64,000 nt of DNA, taken from Patescibacteria group bacterium. Its GTDB lineage: Bacteria; Patescibacteriota; Patescibacteriia; Patescibacteriales; JBAZCA01. Under the pieces are notes generated by a model. The model was not told where the DNA came from. It was given only the letters and a program-made list of their open reading frames with translations, and did not search any database. Made by a program: the position numbers and the translations under genes. The DNA lies in NCBI GenBank assembly GCA_041671125.1, contig JBAZCA010000006.1, positions 3,184-67,183 on the forward strand. Direction: 5' to 3'. Position 1 is the first letter of the stretch, and each line of letters starts with the position of its first letter. Of the stretch, positions 2,833 through 62,624 are shown one piece after another.

Positions 2833-3832
2833 GTTAAAATTTTTAATTATCGGTTTGGGCTCAATGGGCAAGCGAAGAATTCGCAACTTGTTTCATAATG
2901 GTCAAAAACTGATTATTGGATATGATATTCAGGCGAAACGGATGAAAGAAGCAAAAGAAAAATATGGTATCAAAACAGCGGATATAAAGGAAGTAGCCAA
3001 AAGCGATTATGAGGCCATGATTATTTCCACTCCGCCTGATCAGCATGGCGACTATGTCCGGATGGCTTTGCGGGACAAGAAACATTTTTTTGTTGAGCAC
3101 CCGACCAGCACTGACGGTTATAAAGAAATTTTTTTAAATAAGAATCCGCGGATCGCCAAAGCGCCATCTTGCACCTTGCTTTATTACCTGCCGATCAGGA
3201 TGATGAAAAAAATTTTGGATCAAGGTAAAATTGGCAAAGTCTTAGCCTTTCAATATCATATGGGTCAATATTTGCCTGACTGGCACCCTTGGGAAGATTA
3301 CCGCCGGGTTTATTATTCAAAAAAAGAAACCGGAGCCTGCCGGGAGATGTTGCCTTTTGAACTGATCTGGCTTAACCGGCTATTAGGTTCAAAAGTGAAA
3401 AAAATTTCCGGCGCCACAGGAAAGTTGTCTGACTTAAAAATGGAAGCGGATGATTTAATTAACGCTAACGTCCAATACGCCAATGGAATCAGGGGCAATA
3501 TTATTATTGACGTGATTGCCAGAAAACCTTACCGGACTTTGCGGCTTCTCGGATCGGATGGAGTCTTGGATTGGGAAAGATTTGATTTTAAAATAAAGGT
3601 TTATAATGCGAAAAATAAGAAGACAAAAATTATTGACGTTCCTAGAGGCCATCCAGAAACCGGCTATGTTAATGAAGAGGAAATGTATAATGAAGAAATC
3701 GGCGATTTTTTACGAGCTATTGACGGCAAAAAAGAATTTCCGCACAATTTTAAAGACAGTCAGCAAGTATTAAATACTCTTTACGCCCTGGAGAAAAGCA
3801 GTATCAGTGGCAGGGAGATAAGTGTGAAATAA
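2819..3832 (+). CDS. Gfo/Idh/MocA family oxidoreductase
   Basis: N-terminal Rossmann motif FLIIGLGSMGKRR and a 337-aa architecture typical of the family. The start overlaps the upstream gene by 14 nt. Confidence 0.7.
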   Translation: MEKNKLKFLIIGLGSMGKRRIRNLFHNGQKLIIGYDIQAKRMKEAKEKYGIKTADIKEVAKSDYEAMIISTPPDQHGDYVRMALRDKKHFFVEHPTSTDGYKEIFLNKNPRIAKAPSCTLLYYLPIRMMKKILDQGKIGKVLAFQYHMGQYLPDWHPWEDYRRVYYSKKETGACREMLPFELIWLNRLLGSKVKKISGATGKLSDLKMEADDLINANVQYANGIRGNIIIDVIARKPYRTLRLLGSDGVLDWERFDFKIKVYNAKNKKTKIIDVPRGHPETGYVNEEEMYNEEIGDFLRAIDGKKEFPHNFKDSQQVLNTLYALEKSSISGREISVK

Positions 3833-5001: not shown

Positions 5002-5949
5002 ATGTCCGCTCCGCGTTCAAACAGCAATAAAATAATTTTCATTACTTTTAACCGGCTTGGCTGTCTTTGTTTAGAAACAATCGCCCGATCCGGGGTTTTT
5101 GATATAAAACAAGTGTACACTCTAAAGCAGAAACTGACGGAAAAAATTTCCGATTATAAAGACGTAGAACCTTTGTGTGAAAAATTTAAATTTTCGGTTA
5201 AAAGGATAAAAAATATCAATAACGAAATAGATGAAATCAGAAAAATCAATCCGGATATTATTTTTATTATCGGCTGGTCCCAGATTATTAATAGAGAACT
5301 GATAAAAATTCCAAAGATCGGTTGCGTCGGTTTCCATCCGGCGCTCCTGCCGAAGAATCGGGGCCGAGCGGCTATACCCTGGCATTTTATAAATGAAGAG
5401 AGATATGGCGGCGCCACCTTATTTTTTATTGACGACAGTTGTGATAGTGGCGATATAATCGGCCAGAAAAAATTTAGGTTAACTGATAAAGATAACGCCC
5501 AAAGTTATTATCTGAAAGCTGAAGAAGCCGCGGTCGCGCTATTAAATAAAACCCTGGCTGGTTTAGCGGTAAATAAAATAAAAAGGCGTCCGCAAGATGA
5601 CCGCCGGGCGACATATCTCCTTATCAGGAACGCGGGTGACAGTTTTCTGGACTTTCAAAAATTAAATACCAGACAAATTTTTAACCAAGTCCGAGCGGTT
5701 GCCGGCGTCTATCCGCCCGCTTTCGCGGATTATGAAAACAATAGGGTGGAGTTTCTGGCTGCGGCGATAGTGCCGAAAAAGTATTATATTTATTCAGCCA
5801 CAACCGGCCAAATAATCAAGGTTTCACCTGATTGTATCTGGGTAAAAACAATTAACGGTATTATTGAGCTAAACAAAATTTCGTCTGGCGGTGCGGCGAT
5901 TAATGATTGCTCCCGGTTTTTTAAGGCCGGACATTATTTAAACAGATAA
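5002..5949 (+). CDS. Formyltransferase (Fmt/ArnA-N-like sugar N-formyltransferase candidate)
   Basis: The IIGWSQII...GFHPALLPKNRGRAAIPW motif matches the formyl_transf N domain. Located inside the sugar cluster. Confidence 0.65.
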   Translation: MSAPRSNSNKIIFITFNRLGCLCLETIARSGVFDIKQVYTLKQKLTEKISDYKDVEPLCEKFKFSVKRIKNINNEIDEIRKINPDIIFIIGWSQIINRELIKIPKIGCVGFHPALLPKNRGRAAIPWHFINEERYGGATLFFIDDSCDSGDIIGQKKFRLTDKDNAQSYYLKAEEAAVALLNKTLAGLAVNKIKRRPQDDRRATYLLIRNAGDSFLDFQKLNTRQIFNQVRAVAGVYPPAFADYENNRVEFLAAAIVPKKYYIYSATTGQIIKVSPDCIWVKTINGIIELNKISSGGAAINDCSRFFKAGHYLNR

Positions 5950-15654: not shown

Positions 15655-15730
15655 GGTAAAAAATCCTTAAAAAGGATTCCTGGCCTTTTAAAAAGGCCTG
15701 TCCCTGCTCGGGGAAAAATAAATAATAATT

Positions 15731-15812
15731 AAATTCAGCATTCTGGCTTTCCGCCTTGGGCGGATTACAGTTGCGGCACAGCGCCTGATTTTCACAGGAC
15801 TTTCCTGAATTT
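15731..15812 (-). promoter_or_regulatory. Cobalamin riboswitch aptamer (compact, short P6; class-II-like)
   Basis: Minus strand reads AAAUUCAG-GAAAGUCCUGUGAAAAUCAGGCGCUGUGCCGCAACUGUAA-uccgcccaaggcgga-AAGCCAGAAUG-CUGAAUUU. It contains the conserved GGAAA, GUGAAAAUC, CCGCAACUGUAA and B12-box-like AAGCCAG elements, and an 8-bp P1. Confidence 0.75.
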
Positions 15813-15824
15813 AATCTATTGTTA

Positions 15825-15854
15825 ATAGTAGCGGGTATAAATTTTACTGTCAAC
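15825..15854 (-). promoter_or_regulatory. Sigma70-type promoter for the riboswitch operon
   Basis: Minus-strand TTGACA (15854-15849), 18-nt spacer, TACTAT (15830-15825). Confidence 0.5.
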
Positions 15855-16990: not shown

Positions 16991-17138
16991 GTCATCCTGA
17001 GCGAAGCGAAGGATCTAATTGCACTAAGCACGAATAGAAAAGAGCCTCACTATGAAATTATGTCATAAATTATAGCGTCTTCCGGCTGGTGATAAATTCG
17101 TCTCAATTAGATCCTTCGCCGACACGGCTCAGGATGAC
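16991..17138. repeat. Family-A palindromic MITE-like element (gtcatcctgagc...gaaggatc termini)
   Basis: Terminal inverted repeats gtcatcctgagcgaagcgaaggatctaattg / caattagatccttcgccgacacggctcaggatgac. Intergenic. Confidence 0.8.
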
Positions 17139-28693: not shown

Positions 28694-28768
28694 TCCCGGG
28701 TAGCGCAGCGGTAGCGCAGCTCGCTGTTAACGAGTTGGTCGTCGGTTCGAATCCGACCCCGGGAGCCA
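28694..28768 (+). tRNA. tRNA-Asn (anticodon GTT), CCA encoded
   Basis: Manual cloverleaf: acceptor tcccggg/cccggga, D stem gcgc/gcgc, anticodon loop ctGTTaa, T arm gtcgg-ttcgaat-ccgac, discriminator g, CCA. Confidence 0.93.
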
Positions 28769-37126: not shown

Positions 37127-37375
37127 ATGTATCACCTCTATATCCTTCAATGTTCGGATAAAACTTTGTATACCGGGATTACGACTGATCTCAACCGGAG
37201 AATAGGTGAGCATAATAGCGGAAAAAGAGGAGCTAAATATACAAGAGCCCGGCGGCCGGTCAGATTAGTTTATTCCCGGAAGTTTAAAAGCCGGTCGGTC
37301 GCGCAGGCGGCCGAAAGCCGGATAAAGAAACTATCCCGGGTGGAAAAATTGGTAAAGATAAAAGGAAAGTTGTAG
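37127..37375 (+). CDS. GIY-YIG nuclease family protein (YhbQ/UPF0213-like)
   Basis: YHLYILQCSDKTLYTGITTDLNRRIGEHNSGKRGAKYTRARRP. Confidence 0.85.
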   Translation: MYHLYILQCSDKTLYTGITTDLNRRIGEHNSGKRGAKYTRARRPVRLVYSRKFKSRSVAQAAESRIKKLSRVEKLVKIKGKL

Positions 37376-39232: not shown

Positions 39233-39310
39233 GTCGTTCTGAGGCTGAAGGCCGAAGAATCTCGTGGTATTTCCGCTAAACACGAGATCCTTCACTCCGT
39301 TCAGGATGAC
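39233..39310. repeat. Family-A palindromic element, short variant
   Basis: gtcgttctgaggctgaaggccgaagaatctcgtg / cacgagatccttcactccgttcaggatgac. Confidence 0.7.
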
Positions 39311-39324
39311 GTTTCAGCCAAGAC

Positions 39325-39356
39325 AAAACATCCCGCCAAAGAGGCGGGATGTTTTT
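39325..39356. terminator. Bidirectional Rho-independent terminator (helicase / csp)
   Basis: 11-bp stem aacatcccgcc/ggcgggatgtt flanked by A-run and T-run. Confidence 0.8.
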
Positions 39357-39373
39357 ACGCGTGTAAAAAAGTA

Positions 39374-43989: not shown

Positions 43990-44067
43990 GTCATCCTGAG
44001 CGGAGCGAAGGATCTCGAGTATTGAGCGTTCACCACGAGATTCTTCGGGCTTTGCCCTCAGAATGAC
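43990..44067. repeat. Family-A palindromic element, short variant
   Basis: gtcatcctgagcggagcgaaggatctcg ... cgagattcttcgggctttgccctcagaatgac, between glpX and fba. Confidence 0.75.
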
Positions 44068-54603: not shown

Positions 54604-54778
54604 GTCATCCTGAGGCCGGTTAGGCCGAAGGATCTGCGGACAAGTTTTTCATTCTTATGTGTCTATTCCGCATACATGGATTTTCCTTATCTATAGACAA
54701 GACCGATCCATGAATTGACCGCTTTCTGATAATTATATTCCTAGATCCTTCGCTTCGTTTCACTCCGCTCAGGATGAC
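54604..54778. repeat. Family-A palindromic MITE-like element
   Basis: gtcatcctgaggccggttaggccgaaggatctg ... ctagatccttcgcttcgtttcactccgctcaggatgac. Confidence 0.8.
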
Positions 54779-55857: not shown

Positions 55858-58800
55858 TTATAACTCAGATTTCATTCCTTTAGGCATGTATTCTCGCCAG
55901 GATTTAATTTTTAAATCCTCAAGCGATTTTTCGGTCAGGGCTTTGATAAAAGAACGGGTCAGCTGTAAATCGGTAAAAAGCGGGATGTGCGAATCAACCG
56001 CGGCCCGGCGGATAAGATAGCCGTCAGTAACTTCGCCGCCGGATTTTTTTATTCTATCGCCGTTTTGTTCGCTTATGTTAATGACAAAGGCGACTTTTTT
56101 TTCGTTGATAAGGTCAATGACGCTAGGCATTTTTCCTTCGTTTAGTTTATAAACTATTTCAGCCGGAATTTCGCGTTCTTTTAAGAATTCATAAGTCGCG
56201 CCGGTGGCGTAGAGTCTGTAGCCGGCGTCAGAGAGGAGCTTAATGGCTTCAAAAAGCCGGCGCTTATTAACCGGGCCGCCAAGAGTTAAGAGGGCGGATT
56301 TTTTTTCGGTCAGGTTCGTAGAAGCGAGAATAGCTTTTAAGAGCGCTTCGCCAAGATCAGCGCCAAAGGCGGCCACTTCGCCGGTTGAAGACATTTCAAC
56401 TTTTAAGACCGGGTCGGCGCCCGCGAGGCGGGCAAAAGAAAACTGGGGTGATTTTACGACTACGTAATCGGGATAAGAAAGCCGGACTTTTGATCCTTTT
56501 TTGTAAAAGGCGTCAACGATTAAGCCGGCGAAATTAACTCCCGAGGCCTTAGAGATAAAAGGCAGGGTGCGGCTGGCGCGCAAGTTAATTTCAATCACGT
56601 AAACTTTATTTTCTTTAACGAGGAACTGGATATTATACGGGCCGGTAATGCGCAAAGCAATGGCGAGTCGGCGGCTGATTTTTTTTATTTCCTCCTCGGT
56701 TGAAGAAAAGACTTTTTGGGTCGGGTAGGCGATAGTAGCGTCGCCGGAATGGACGCCGGCATTTTCTAAATGCTCGGAGATAGCGTAAACGAGCGTAACT
56801 CCGTCCTGGGCTACCGCGTCGTATTCTATTTCTTTGGCGTTAACCATGAATTTTGACACCGTAACCGAATATTTTTTTGCGGTCAGTCCCAGGGCTTTTT
56901 CCACGAAATTTTCTATGTCAGCGTCGTTAAAACAAACGCTCATGGCCGAACCGGAAAGGACGTAAGACGGCCGGACGAGAACCGGATAACCGACCCGGTC
57001 GGCGAAAGTTTTCGCTTCGGCGATTGAAGCGCAATTGGCCCATTCGGGCTGAGGGATGTCTAATTCGTCGCATAACCGCGAAAATTTTCCCCGGTCTTCG
57101 GCCCGGTTTATATTTTCGGGCGCGGTGCCAAGAATCGGCACTTTATTTTCATGGAGCTTATTGGCGAGGTTGTTCGGGCGCTGGCCGCCGACGGAGATTG
57201 CTACTCCGCCGGATTTTTCAAAGTCATGAATATCCAGTACGGTTTCAAGGTTTAAGTCTTCAAAATAGAGCCGGTCAGACATGTCATAATCCGTAGAAAC
57301 GGTTTCCGGATTGCAGTTGACGATGATTGATTTTTTTCGGTATTTTTTTAATGAGAGAGCGGTATTGACGCATGACCAGTCAAACTCAACCGAAGAGCCG
57401 ATATGGTAGGGGCCGGAGCCTAAAACCATGACAGCTTTTTTTCCGAGCGGACGAACGTCATGATGCGAGCCGTGATAAGTAAGATATAAATAGTTGGTTT
57501 TAGCCGGGACTTCGCCTGCCAGAGTATCAATCTGGAAAACTGAAGGTATTACTTTCAGTTTTTTCCTTAGGGCGCGGACTTCGGTTTCGGTTTTTCCCGC
57601 GAGCTTGCCAATAATCTTATCCGAAATTCCGGCCTGCTTGCATTTTAACAGGGTTTCTTTATTAAGCTTTTTATTTTCGCCGAGCTCTTTTTCAATGTCC
57701 ATGATATTTTTAAGGCGATAGAGAAACCAGGGATCAATGCCGGTCATTCTATAAATTTTTTCTACTTCCATTCCGCGCTTAAAGCCTTCGGCTAAAGCAA
57801 AAATTCTTTTCGGGGTCGGAATTTTAATCCATCTTTCCAGGTCAGGCGTGGCCGTATTGAAGCCGGCGTAAGATATGCCCCTAGCTTTTGAAGCGAGCAT
57901 GCGCACGGCTTTCTGCAGGGCTTCTTCAAAGGAGCGGCCGATAGCCATCACTTCGCCGACCGATTTCATGGCCGAGCCGATGGTCTCTTCGGCGCCGGAA
58001 AATTTTTCTAAATCCCAGCGCGGAATTTTTACGGCAACGTAGTCCAGAGCCGGTTCAAAAAAGCTTTGCGTAACTTTGGTCACCTGGTTTTGGACTTTAT
58101 TTAAAGTAATGCCGAGCGCCAGCTTAGCGGCGACGTAAGCTAAAGGATAGCCGGTGGCTTTGGACGCCAGAGCCGAAGAGCGCGATAACCGGGCGTTTAC
58201 TTCAATGACAAAATATTCCAGTTCGTTTTTTTCCGGTTTGGGGTTTAGGGCGAACTGGACATTACATTCGCCGACGATGCCAAGACTTTGGACTATTTTA
58301 ATAGAGATCTGTCTTAGAGCGTGATATTCGTCATTAGTTAAGGTCTGTGACGGGGCGACTACTATGGATTCGCCGGTATGGATACCTAAAGGATCCATGT
58401 TTTCCATATTACAGACGGTAACGCAGTTGCCGGCCGCGTCGCGCACCACTTCGTATTCAATTTCTTTAAAATGATGAAGGTATTTTTCAATAAGCACTTG
58501 TGGGGAGACGGCCAGGGCGGCGGAAACAATCTCAGTAAGCTGTTTTTCGTCATAAGCCACGCCGGATTTTTGCCCGCCTAAGGTAAACGCGGCCCGAACC
58601 ATAACCGGATAGCCGATTTTTTCCGCGATTTTTTTTGCCTGTTCCAGGCTGGTGGCGGCCGCGCTAGGCGGAACCGTTATGTCAATGTTTCGTAAATGGT
58701 CGGCGAATTTCTGTCGGTCTTCGGTTAATTCAATGGCCGAGACCGGAGTGCCTAAAACTTCTACCCCGTACTTTTTTAAGACGCCTTTGTCATATAATTC

Positions 58801-59097
58801 TAAACCGCAGTTTAAGGCGGTTTGCCCGCCAAAGGATAAAAGGATGCCGTCGGGCTTTTCTTTGGCAATGATTTTTTCAACGAAATAAGGAGTAACCGGC
58901 AGGAAATATATTTCGTCGGCTAAAAGCGGGGAAGTCTGAATCGTCGCGATATTCGGGTTGATTAAGACCGTTTTTATCCCTTCTTCTTTTAAGGCTTTTA
59001 AACCTTGCGATCCGGAATAATCAAACTCACCAGCCTCGCCGATTTTTAAGGCGCCGGAACCGAGCACTAATACTTTTTTTATCTTCATTTTTTTCAT
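55858..59097 (-). CDS. carB: Carbamoyl-phosphate synthase large subunit
   Basis: 1079 aa. Duplicated ATP-grasp halves and the N-terminus KVLVLGSGALKIGEAGEFDYSGSQ. Confidence 0.97.
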   Translation of the reverse strand: MKKMKIKKVLVLGSGALKIGEAGEFDYSGSQGLKALKEEGIKTVLINPNIATIQTSPLLADEIYFLPVTPYFVEKIIAKEKPDGILLSFGGQTALNCGLELYDKGVLKKYGVEVLGTPVSAIELTEDRQKFADHLRNIDITVPPSAAATSLEQAKKIAEKIGYPVMVRAAFTLGGQKSGVAYDEKQLTEIVSAALAVSPQVLIEKYLHHFKEIEYEVVRDAAGNCVTVCNMENMDPLGIHTGESIVVAPSQTLTNDEYHALRQISIKIVQSLGIVGECNVQFALNPKPEKNELEYFVIEVNARLSRSSALASKATGYPLAYVAAKLALGITLNKVQNQVTKVTQSFFEPALDYVAVKIPRWDLEKFSGAEETIGSAMKSVGEVMAIGRSFEEALQKAVRMLASKARGISYAGFNTATPDLERWIKIPTPKRIFALAEGFKRGMEVEKIYRMTGIDPWFLYRLKNIMDIEKELGENKKLNKETLLKCKQAGISDKIIGKLAGKTETEVRALRKKLKVIPSVFQIDTLAGEVPAKTNYLYLTYHGSHHDVRPLGKKAVMVLGSGPYHIGSSVEFDWSCVNTALSLKKYRKKSIIVNCNPETVSTDYDMSDRLYFEDLNLETVLDIHDFEKSGGVAISVGGQRPNNLANKLHENKVPILGTAPENINRAEDRGKFSRLCDELDIPQPEWANCASIAEAKTFADRVGYPVLVRPSYVLSGSAMSVCFNDADIENFVEKALGLTAKKYSVTVSKFMVNAKEIEYDAVAQDGVTLVYAISEHLENAGVHSGDATIAYPTQKVFSSTEEEIKKISRRLAIALRITGPYNIQFLVKENKVYVIEINLRASRTLPFISKASGVNFAGLIVDAFYKKGSKVRLSYPDYVVVKSPQFSFARLAGADPVLKVEMSSTGEVAAFGADLGEALLKAILASTNLTEKKSALLTLGGPVNKRRLFEAIKLLSDAGYRLYATGATYEFLKEREIPAEIVYKLNEGKMPSVIDLINEKKVAFVINISEQNGDRIKKSGGEVTDGYLIRRAAVDSHIPLFTDLQLTRSFIKALTEKSLEDLKIKSWREYMPKGMKSEL

Positions 59098-59109
59098 AAT
59101 TTCCCTATT

Positions 59110-59375
59110 GTCATCCTGAGCGGAGCGAAGGATCTGCTAACGCGTCTTACGCGTTTGCTTATTATAGCGTTCGCTCAGCTCCAACACCTGTCCGGTGTTC
59201 CAATATGCGGTTTATAATATTATTTGTGATTCCGGTGTAAAAAATCGTTATATTAAAATTCGTCAGTATATAAACGTAATATCGGCGCTCGTCTCTCATA
59301 ACATTAATCAGCTATGATTCATTATTTCGCAATTCTCATCCGTAGATCCTTCCTCCCTACGGTCGTCAGGATGAC
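59110..59375. mobile_element. Family-A element carrying an internal GIY-YIG gene remnant
   Basis: Termini gtcatcctgagcggagcgaaggatctgc / gtagatccttcctccctacggtcgtcaggatgac enclose 200 bp that include a truncated GIY-YIG ORF. Confidence 0.75.
59162..59299 (-). pseudogene. Truncated GIY-YIG nuclease gene (45 codons)
   Basis: Manual translation of the minus strand gives MRDERRYYVYILTNFNITIFYTGITNNIINRILEHRTGVGAERTL*. This is the canonical GIY...YIG N-terminus, stopping after the EHR motif. Confidence 0.7.
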
Positions 59376-59396
59376 AGGTGGGAGGTGAATCATAGC

Positions 59397-60443
59397 CTAT
59401 CGGCTTCCAGGAATGACATGCTCAAGGAATTCATCAAACAACCAGCCGGTATCAAGCGGTCCGGGTCGGGATTCAGGATGAAACTGGACTGACATGAAAG
59501 GGAGGCTCTGATGGATTATGCCTTCATTAGTATTGTCATTGGCGTTGTAAAACCACTCTTTAAAGCCTTTGGGAATTTTTCCGACCGCGAAGCCGTGGTT
59601 TTGGGTGGTCAGGAAACATTTATCCGTGCCTTTTATCACCGCCGGCTGGTTTTGCCCCCGGTGGCCGAATTTTAACTTATAAGTATCGCCGCCGGCCGCG
59701 AGGGCTAAAATCTGGTTCCCGAGGCAAATGCCAAAGATTGGAATTTTTTTTGCCATAAGATGTTTTATGCTCTTGATTGTTTTGTCGGCCATCTTAGGAT
59801 CGCCCGGGCCGTTTGAAATCATCAATCCGTCAAATTTGATGCCGGCCTCTAAAGGGTTACAGTCCCAGGGGGCGACAATTACCTTAACGCCGCGCTTTGA
59901 TAGTTCATTAGCGATATTGGCTTTAGCCCCGCAATCTAATAAAACAACGGTTTTTTGACCGTTGCCTTTTTCATATATATCTTTAGTTGAAACTTTAGCG
60001 ACTAGATTATCCTTATTCGGATCCGCGAATCCAATTTTTTCTCCCAATTCAATTTTTCCAAGCATTACGCCCTTTGTCCTTAATTTTTGGGTCAAACCCC
60101 GGGTGTCTTTTATTTCCAGAGCCGGAATGCCTTCGTCCATTAACCATTGGCTAAGCGTTCGTTCGCTCTGGTGATGGGACGGCGTGTCTATGTAAGAAGA
60201 AACAATTAAACCGGCCACCTGGATTTTATCCGACTCCCAATGCTCTTTGGCCGGAACGCCGTAGTTGCCGACCAGCGGGTAGGTCATGACCAGGATTTGT
60301 CCGGCGTAAGAAGGATCGGTGAGGCTTTCCGGATAACCGACCATGCCGGTCGCGAAAACCACCTCTCCGGCAATGGACTTTTCTTTGCCAAAAGAATGAC
60401 CGGAAATTTCAGTTCCGTCTTTTAATATGAGTTTGCCAGTCAT
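59397..60443 (-). CDS. carA: Carbamoyl-phosphate synthase small (glutaminase) subunit
   Basis: VFATGMVGYPESLTDPSYAGQI, GICLGNQ, FHPE. Confidence 0.95.
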   Translation of the reverse strand: MTGKLILKDGTEISGHSFGKEKSIAGEVVFATGMVGYPESLTDPSYAGQILVMTYPLVGNYGVPAKEHWESDKIQVAGLIVSSYIDTPSHHQSERTLSQWLMDEGIPALEIKDTRGLTQKLRTKGVMLGKIELGEKIGFADPNKDNLVAKVSTKDIYEKGNGQKTVVLLDCGAKANIANELSKRGVKVIVAPWDCNPLEAGIKFDGLMISNGPGDPKMADKTIKSIKHLMAKKIPIFGICLGNQILALAAGGDTYKLKFGHRGQNQPAVIKGTDKCFLTTQNHGFAVGKIPKGFKEWFYNANDNTNEGIIHQSLPFMSVQFHPESRPGPLDTGWLFDEFLEHVIPGSR

Positions 60444-62521: not shown

Positions 62522-62624
62522 GTCATTTCGAGCCCGACGCAAGGAGGGCGAGAAATCTAATCTTCGTGAAAACGCGTTCATAGCAATTAGATCTCTCCCT
62601 CCGCTACGCTCCGGTCGAGATGAC
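62522..62624. repeat. Family-A variant palindromic element (gtcatttcgagc...ctcgagatgac)
   Basis: gtcatttcgagcccgacgcaaggagggcgagaaatctaat / attagatctctccctccgctacgctccggtcgagatgac, between pyrD and pyrK. Confidence 0.75.

Follow-up and report, generated by a model that had tools for sequence, protein, structure and literature searches.

In the window examined here (the whole 64-kb stretch of DNA, taken from a Patescibacteria MAG contig of 88 kb), a 266-bp palindromic element lies between carB and carA and carries, between inverted ends of a repeat type termed family A, a fragment of a GIY-YIG nuclease gene. The locus raises the question of how gene and repeat belong together, and whether the gene-less copies of the same repeat in the window are the remains of such genes, as a sequence-only reading of the window had suggested. 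The observation is real and the general idea survives, its interpretation being supported in part. The link between hairpins and GIY-YIG gene is that of the published Ssn/SRM system, and the find is largely explained by the work of Chenal et al. 2025 (PMC11893778); new are the Patescibacteria host, a hairpin class missed by the published SRM pattern, and the comparison of filled and empty sites.

In N. meningitidis, SsnA is a 94-aa single-domain GIY-YIG protein (cd10448) that binds the hairpin repeat NTS (CGTCATTCCCGCGMAVGCGGGAATCYRG) as ssDNA only and cuts a few nucleotides upstream of it. Cleavage is governed by GTC, the three bases preceding the palindrome, and binding by the C following the palindrome. 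Ssn homologues in many phyla have flanking 'Ssn-related motifs' (SRM), and the NTS-ssnA-NTS layout was likened to IS and RAYT/REP, mobility being only hypothesised (PMC11893778). The paper has a set of 7,051 Ssn sequences and gives 71% as the share of ssn loci flanked by an SRM. Patescibacteria and pseudogenes are not mentioned in the main text of that paper.

The element between carB and carA

The features of the locus are as follows.

55858-59097, minus strand: carB
59093-59116, plus strand: direct repeat partner, covering the start codon and RBS of carB as well as the left hairpin's outer edge
59110-59135, plus strand: left hairpin, Ssn-related-motif-like, GTC-ATCCT-GA-GCGGAGC-GA-AGGAT-CT
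59162-59299, minus strand: ssn pseudogene (stump) of 45 codons, identified by Pfam, an Ssn HMM and its nearest relatives
59318-59341, plus strand: direct repeat copy, 20 of 24 nt identical to 59093-59116
59344-59375, minus strand: right hairpin, GTC-ATCCT-GA-CGACCGTAGGGAG-GA-AGGAT-CT
59385-59420, minus strand: extra insert sequence, in which a degenerate hairpin start GTCATTCC lies at 59417-59410, from junction comparison with the relatives L204, L205, L207 and L209
59397-60443, minus strand: carA

The 266-bp element (59110-59375) takes up most of the 299-nt gap between carB and carA, and its inverted GTCATCCTGAG-type ends enclose a 45-codon minus-strand ORF (59299-59162) with exactly the residues quoted in the sequence-only reading, which described the copy and its place correctly. 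The left end reads GTCATCCTGAGCGGAGCGAAGGATCT on the plus strand (59110-59135), and the right end GTCATCCTGACGACCGTAGGGAGGAAGGATCT on the minus strand (59344-59375), with 2 mismatches to the family 12-mer (see below). In gene orientation the left hairpin is downstream of the stump and the right hairpin upstream, about 44-45 nt ahead of the ATG, a spacing that matches the full-length modules compared (L137, L173, L176 and L186). The hairpins lie 26 nt (left) and 44 nt (right) from the ORF ends, on both sides and well within the 500 bp used for flanking motifs in the Ssn/SRM system.

The 59318-59341 repeat consists of the 17-nt outer flank and the first 7 nt of the left hairpin, and continues as a truncated hairpin (CTCATCC followed by GTAGATCC) that is fused to the right hairpin. 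The order is hairpin(+), gene(-), truncated hairpin(+), hairpin(-), the same as in loci L042 and L088 of other genomes. A perfect 11-nt inverted repeat, GCTATGATTCA / TGAATCATAGC (59311-59321 and 59386-59396), brackets the right hairpin and its immediate flanks. The element had been taken to end at 59375 and does exist with these limits; foreign DNA nevertheless continues to about 59420, into the 3' end of carA, where the last nine codons and the stop (LEHVIPGSR and stop; window 59397-59420) come from the insert, the four relatives ending in (I/L)KK(I/L) and stop. The 'VIP' residues of CarA are encoded by the degenerate GTCATTCC hairpin start. No Rfam family is recognised on the element, whether the gathering cut-offs are applied or E is allowed to reach 10; a resemblance to a hammerhead (CUGA...GAA) was dropped, the core being incomplete and Rfam silent. 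An AdoCbl riboswitch (61 bits, 15693-15832, minus strand) and a tRNA-Asn(GTT) (28694-28768, plus strand) elsewhere in the window are both unrelated to the hairpin element. In the NCBI numbering carA is MFA6394162 and pyrB is MFA6394164, and because a single number lies between them, presumably that of carB, the stump is apparently unannotated.

Of the about 95 residues of a full-length protein, the stump covers the first 38, which hold the GIY...YIG...R..EH motifs of the Ssn-type nucleases, in agreement with its earlier description as a truncated GIY-YIG N-terminal half. It matches Pfam GIY-YIG (PF01541) at 27.3 bits (E 4.5e-6, cut-off 22.6) over profile positions 2-38 of 78, which places it at superfamily level only, and an Ssn HMM at 38.3 bits (E 1.3e-10); NCBIfam has no model for Ssn-type proteins here. 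A word-indexed homologue search with the 45-aa stump gave no match, and exhaustive phmmer was used instead, by which the nearest relatives among 1.84 billion representative proteins are all Ssn-type, with the signature YVYI.TN..LYTG.TNNL.RR..EH...FT.KY..KLVYYE..AI.REKQIKG..R.KK..LI...NP.W. The match to N. gonorrhoeae SsnA is 39% over 28 aa (E 2e-6), an alignment that is short because the gene is truncated. The putative placement of the stump in the Ssn clade (cd10448) rests on 38 residues.

Judged from its sequence, the gene is a dead pseudogene. From the set Y6, Y17 and E64 of Nm SsnA, the stump keeps both tyrosines (VYI, FYTG); it stops near the residue-38 equivalent, without the Glu of the REK motif, and its end codons (GAERTL and stop) come from the hairpin-like CTGAGCGAACGC. 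Because the C-terminal ~57 codons including the catalytic Glu are missing, the local gene yields no enzyme, and no intact ssn gene was found in the 64-kb window or in an extra 4.5 kb of the contig. Roughly half of the nearest relatives (P0128-P0163) are shorter than 85 aa or have out-of-frame tails, which suggests frequent pseudogenisation and mis-annotation of ssn genes across metagenomes. Several stump relatives start or end with hairpin-encoded peptides (SFRPKGEI..., ...CFASLAMT, ...IKSGMT, ...SLAMT, ...SGMT).

The window holds one intact GIY-YIG gene.

37127-37375: intact UPF0213-type GIY-YIG gene

This gene scores 66.7 bits to PDB 1zg2 (UPF0213 BH0048) vs 39 bits for the Ssn-type profile, and its earlier assignment to a different subfamily stands. 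The stump scores 37.9 bits against the Ssn-type protein of locus L061 vs 17.7 bits against the UPF0213 protein. UPF0213 proteins (BH0048 / EF2693) are similar in size and share the N-terminal GIY...YIG...R..EH motifs, but form a clade separate from the Ssn type, and the gene at 37127-37375 lacks flanking family-A hairpins. The palindrome AGACGCAAAATTTTGCGTCT that follows it (to 37412) had been listed as a member of a further repeat family, D; it occurs once in the window even at 3 mismatches, is not a repeat family there, and from its sequence looks like a terminator.

Hairpins and full-length GIY-YIG genes

The inverted ends are indeed present, but had been read as one TIR pair; judged by compensatory changes, they are two independent hairpins. 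Each terminus forms its own local hairpin, GTC-A-YYYY-GA-[variable mini stem-loop]-GA-RRRR-T-C, in which stem variants such as ATCCT/AGGAT, ATTCT/AGAAT, ATTTC/GAAAT and ATCTC/GAGAT are compensated inside one terminus, often unmirrored at the opposite terminus of the same copy. In a non-circular test, in which the complements of the 12 commonest stems were sought after every GTCA-NNNN-GA, the matrix of 5' stems against 3' complements holds 419 diagonal and 38 off-diagonal counts. DNA folding gives z of -2.3 to -2.5 for hairpins with G+C mini-stems, and doublets fold as long hairpins (z -3.3). For the GCGGAGC class nearest-neighbour folding is no better than shuffles (z -0.8), and the structural claim therefore rests on covariation.

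With up to 2 mismatches, the 12-mer GTCATCCTGAGC occurs 13 times in the window vs 1.5 expected, a count reached in none of 100 shuffles. A search by structure picks out 11 hairpins in the window vs 0 in the reversed control, and 278 vs 2 in 120 loci of other genomes; these figures are those of a strict detector and are conservative (the GTCATTGCGAGG...GAAGCAATC class, for example, is missed), a relaxed detector having been discarded for its 137 control matches. All 12 window hairpins examined for orientation read GTC-[AG]NNNN...N'N'N'N'T-C, keeping the 5' GTC and the 3' C. The exact 25-mer GTCATCCTGAGCGNAGCGAAGGATC is present in at least 120 contigs of species-representative genomes from more than 10 phyla (Acidobacteriota, Chloroflexota, Omnitrophota, Patescibacteria, Bacteroidota, Bacillota, Planctomycetota, Verrucomicrobiota, Gemmatimonadota, Nitrospirota, Pseudomonadota and others).

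The sequence-only reading had proposed a search for full-length GIY-YIG genes between the same repeats, whose complete absence would have counted against it. Such genes exist, and its link between termini and gene therefore holds. The 840 kb of loci selected by their hairpins contain four small GIY-YIG genes and no more, each directly beside hairpins. In locus L061 (Chloroflexota), a hairpin at 3313-3336(+) and another at 3687-3710(-) enclose a gene at 3377-3664(-); further full-length genes flanked by the same hairpins are present in L042, L088, L090 and most of L121-L200. Conversely, a profile of the hairpin-linked proteins retrieved 593 metagenome loci, and among the best 80 of these, selected by protein, at least 58 have a hairpin no further than 250 bp away (the 262 kb hold 219 hairpins vs 3 in the reversed control). 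Two layouts recur, the gene lying either within a convergent pair or between the GTCA-ends of two flanking doublets. The association first noticed at carB-carA is thus real and general; the part that lacks support is the view of gene-less hairpins as leftovers of gene decay.

The L061 protein shows 47% identity to SsnA of N. gonorrhoeae across 88 of 94 aa (E 3e-26) and, with the gonococcal orthologue as a proxy, falls within the published definition of an SsnA homologue (blastp E < 1e-10, >=75% coverage, single domain, <150 aa; PMC11893778). The gonococcal orthologue (L201) has 94 aa with Y6 and Y17 in register, and 9 canonical NTS repeats lie in 2.3 kb around ssnA. The two gonococcal sequences NZ_CP119140.1 (L201) and NZ_CP119142.1 (2.17 Mb) are listed as plasmids in PLSDB and look like whole chromosomes. 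Planktothrix agardhii plasmid p1 (L202; NZ_LR882964.1 18847-19131) also has a complete gene of the Ssn type, with 66% identity to L061 and GTCATTCTGAG-type hairpins around it; this gene is flanked by DISARM drmA and by a type IIL MmeI restriction-modification gene, a defence-island setting. Among the carriers, Hymenobacter glaciei and Mucilaginibacter sp. SG564 can be cultured.

The window element thus shares with the Ssn/SRM system the ~95-aa single-domain GIY-YIG gene between inverted, oriented hairpins, which begin with (C/T)GTCA, end with C after the palindrome, and lie scattered between genes, in many cases as convergent pairs; the window hairpins are predicted to be ssDNA recognition sites of an Ssn-type nuclease. 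It differs in its gene, a pseudogene, in its host, a Patescibacteria MAG, in the filled and empty sites recorded for it, and in its hairpin, where the continuous 8-bp stem of NTS is replaced by an outer stem of 5 bp, tandem G.A/A.G positions and, nested within, a variable mini stem-loop. The published degenerate SRM, HGTCWYN(0-2)YYVSBRHN(0-5)WNVSBRGN(0-2)RNCYNB (PMC11893778), recovers the 9 NTS repeats around gonococcal ssnA, and matches none of 12 window hairpins and one of 80 ssn loci.

Several other systems resemble the module. Like REP/REPIN-RAYT, it has one small nuclease gene between inverted, oriented hairpins with a conserved 5' tag and many gene-less hairpin doublets per genome, ssDNA recognition being presumed; inverted doublets of an oriented hairpin dispersed in intergenic DNA, as in REPINs, are found here as well. 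The gene associated with family A, however, is GIY-YIG and not an HUH/Y1 (IS200-like) transposase, and the tag is GTCA and not GTAG or CGTC. With IS200/IS605 the module shares subterminal hairpins recognised in ssDNA and cleavage a short distance 5' of the hairpin. In IS200/IS605 both ends are cut on one strand and rejoined via a covalent tyrosine intermediate, a joining chemistry not known for GIY-YIG enzymes, whereas the convergent layout of family A leaves one cleavable hairpin per strand. Homing endonucleases (I-TevI, I-BmoI) have the same GIY-YIG catalytic fold and selfish-gene flavour, but they carry a separate DNA-binding domain, cut dsDNA and reside in introns and phage genomes. The relatives of the stump are single-domain proteins of 90-105 aa, and no Ssn-type relative was found in the 2.9 million viral contigs of IMG/VR; homing by small GIY-YIG genes, as the sequence-only reading had it, is not borne out.

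Gene-less doublets and empty sites

Six family-A doublets, all intergenic, are present in the 64 kb. The five besides the stump copy, none assigned to a strand, are as follows.

16991-17138: doublet of 148 bp, intergenic, with an interior unrelated to the stump element
39233-39310: doublet of 78 bp, with 81% identity to the 43990 copy from end to end
43990-44067: doublet of 78 bp
54604-54778: doublet of 175 bp, downstream of pyrB, with G+C mini-stems in its hairpins
62522-62624: doublet of 103 bp, between pyrD and a pyrK-like gene, with stems ATTTC/GAAAT and ATCTC/GAGAT

These copies have the sizes that were reported for them and lack a coding remnant, but they do not form the nested series proposed, as their interiors are unrelated. 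Among 36 frames the best match to Ssn has E 0.023, compared with 8.5e-12 for the stump copy, and beyond the hairpins the five interiors have no similarity to the stump element. The 840 kb of hairpin-bearing loci show the same pattern: convergent-pair lengths are bimodal, 74 of 90 pairs being tight doublets of 60-125 bp and few lying near 400 bp, and no further ssn stump was found in them. The 81% identity of the two 78-bp copies along their whole length indicates that a doublet is copied as such, and from these comparisons of sequence doublets appear to propagate as units rather than to arise one by one from gene decay. The stump would then be a rare intermediate and the doublet the standard unit, better seen as a REPIN-like rider than as the wreck of a gene. 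Directly after the doublet at 39233-39310, a terminator-like hairpin (CATCCCGCC AAAGA GGCGGGATG and a T run) is present at 39330-39360.

A comparison of empty and filled sites, also proposed in the sequence-only reading, is provided by the four closest relatives (L204, L205, L207 and L209; CarA 84-89% identical). Their carA-carB gap is 2-5 nt vs 299 nt in the window, and neither hairpins nor an ssn gene were found in about 17 kb of syntenic DNA of each, a region that holds three doublets in the window. Because the carA-carB junction is empty and free of hairpins in all four, the module is a recent insertion relative to them. The pyrD-pyrK site (62522-62624 doublet) is empty in the relatives as well, and there the window insert is bracketed by AATATTA, a possible 7-nt duplication; such a duplication is seen at this site only, the carA-carB junction being remodelled. 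Near pyrB (54604-54778), the relatives are without the hairpin and the site is not alignable. The pyrD-pyrK spacer of L207/L208 (about 5607-5768) contains other AT-rich palindromes, e.g. GAAAACTTTTTGTAAAAAGTTTTC, and may be a hot spot for palindromic insertions. In L209 (9044-12526), carB is called at 1160 aa, as against 1079 aa for the window and for the other relatives; the extra length may reflect an in-frame insertion or an error of gene calling.

Proposed origin and spread of the module

Very probably, the 266-bp element is a decayed SRM-ssn-SRM module, i.e. a ~95-aa GIY-YIG gene between inverted copies of the oriented hairpin that such enzymes recognise. The module or parts of it would have entered the Patescibacteria lineage recently, and one internal deletion of about 170 bp, with an end at the hairpin-like CTGAGCGAACGC, would have killed the gene. 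The five gene-less copies would be ordinary hairpin doublets that multiply as units in the manner of REPINs, and would depend on Ssn acting in trans and encoded elsewhere, or may now be relics. Spread would probably involve ssDNA fragments with Ssn cuts at their ends, returned to the chromosome at other hairpin copies through recombination by the host. This mobility mechanism is a conjecture, because to our knowledge a GIY-YIG nuclease has no strand-joining activity. Tentatively, and with considerable doubt, SRM-ssn-SRM might be an autonomous mobile element that works by a new type of mechanism, in which the GIY-YIG ssDNase frees hairpin-bounded ssDNA, host recombination reinstalls it at hairpins, and the doublets are non-autonomous riders. 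If so, the window would show a recent invasion of a Patescibacteria genome with one gene copy already decaying, and the direct repeat of flank plus hairpin would be the footprint of the copying step.

It was suggested in the sequence-only reading that every family-A copy is the wreck of a gene-bearing GIY-YIG mobile unit, the lengths of 78-266 bp forming a nested deletion series. The stump in one copy, the full-length genes between the same hairpins elsewhere, and the many truncated nearest relatives (45-80 aa), which attest that ssn genes decay often, all fit this history; the other five interiors, without Ssn remnant or similarity beyond the hairpins, the bimodal pair lengths with no second stump in 840 kb, and the full-length identity of the two 78-bp copies make it unlikely. 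A two-step origin, in which a gene-less doublet settled at carA-carB and a gene segment recombined into it via hairpin homology, is possible, if somewhat improbable. It would explain the direct repeat of flank and hairpin edge (59093-59116 / 59318-59341), the truncated hairpin fused to the right hairpin, and the hairpin(+), gene(-), hairpin(+), hairpin(-) order found again in L042 and L088. A doublet-only site is seen in no relative, however, all four being completely empty, and the 24-nt repeat could stem from a local duplication after insertion.

Two further readings make the GIY-YIG gene incidental. If family A were a classical MITE of a DDE-type IS and the stump an unrelated passenger, the inverted ends and the possible AATATTA duplication at one site would be expected, but so would TIRs shared with a transposase-encoding IS. 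No IS with family-A termini and a transposase was seen, and GIY-YIG is the only gene found between hairpin pairs (the ORFs of other large pairs being outside the Pfam scan) and is systematically linked to the hairpins; moreover, the two ends of one copy differ, yet each keeps its own internal complementarity. This origin is scarcely credible. Alternatively, the hairpins could act mainly in RNA, as terminators, stabilisers of mRNA or regulators in the pyrimidine operon, a reading in line with the intergenic position of all copies, with the location of three of them in or beside the carA-carB-pyrB and pyrD-pyrK units, where they would be transcribed, and with the folding of doublets into long hairpins. 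It is very unlikely, given the lack of an Rfam match, the same 25-mer in unrelated contexts in more than 10 phyla, relatives that run the same operon without hairpins, and hairpins in both orientations; in addition, Neisseria SsnA shows no RNA binding (PMC11893778). A secondary effect of the hairpins on mRNA is possible.

Read as a decayed ssn module, the locus provides a natural filled-vs-empty comparison, in which four relatives lack all three inserts of one operon region, and a rare decay intermediate. Because a widespread hairpin class falls outside the published SRM pattern, surveys by that pattern under-count such systems. For annotation, the element shows where spurious peptide tails and altered gene ends commonly come from, the C-terminus of CarA being the case at hand.
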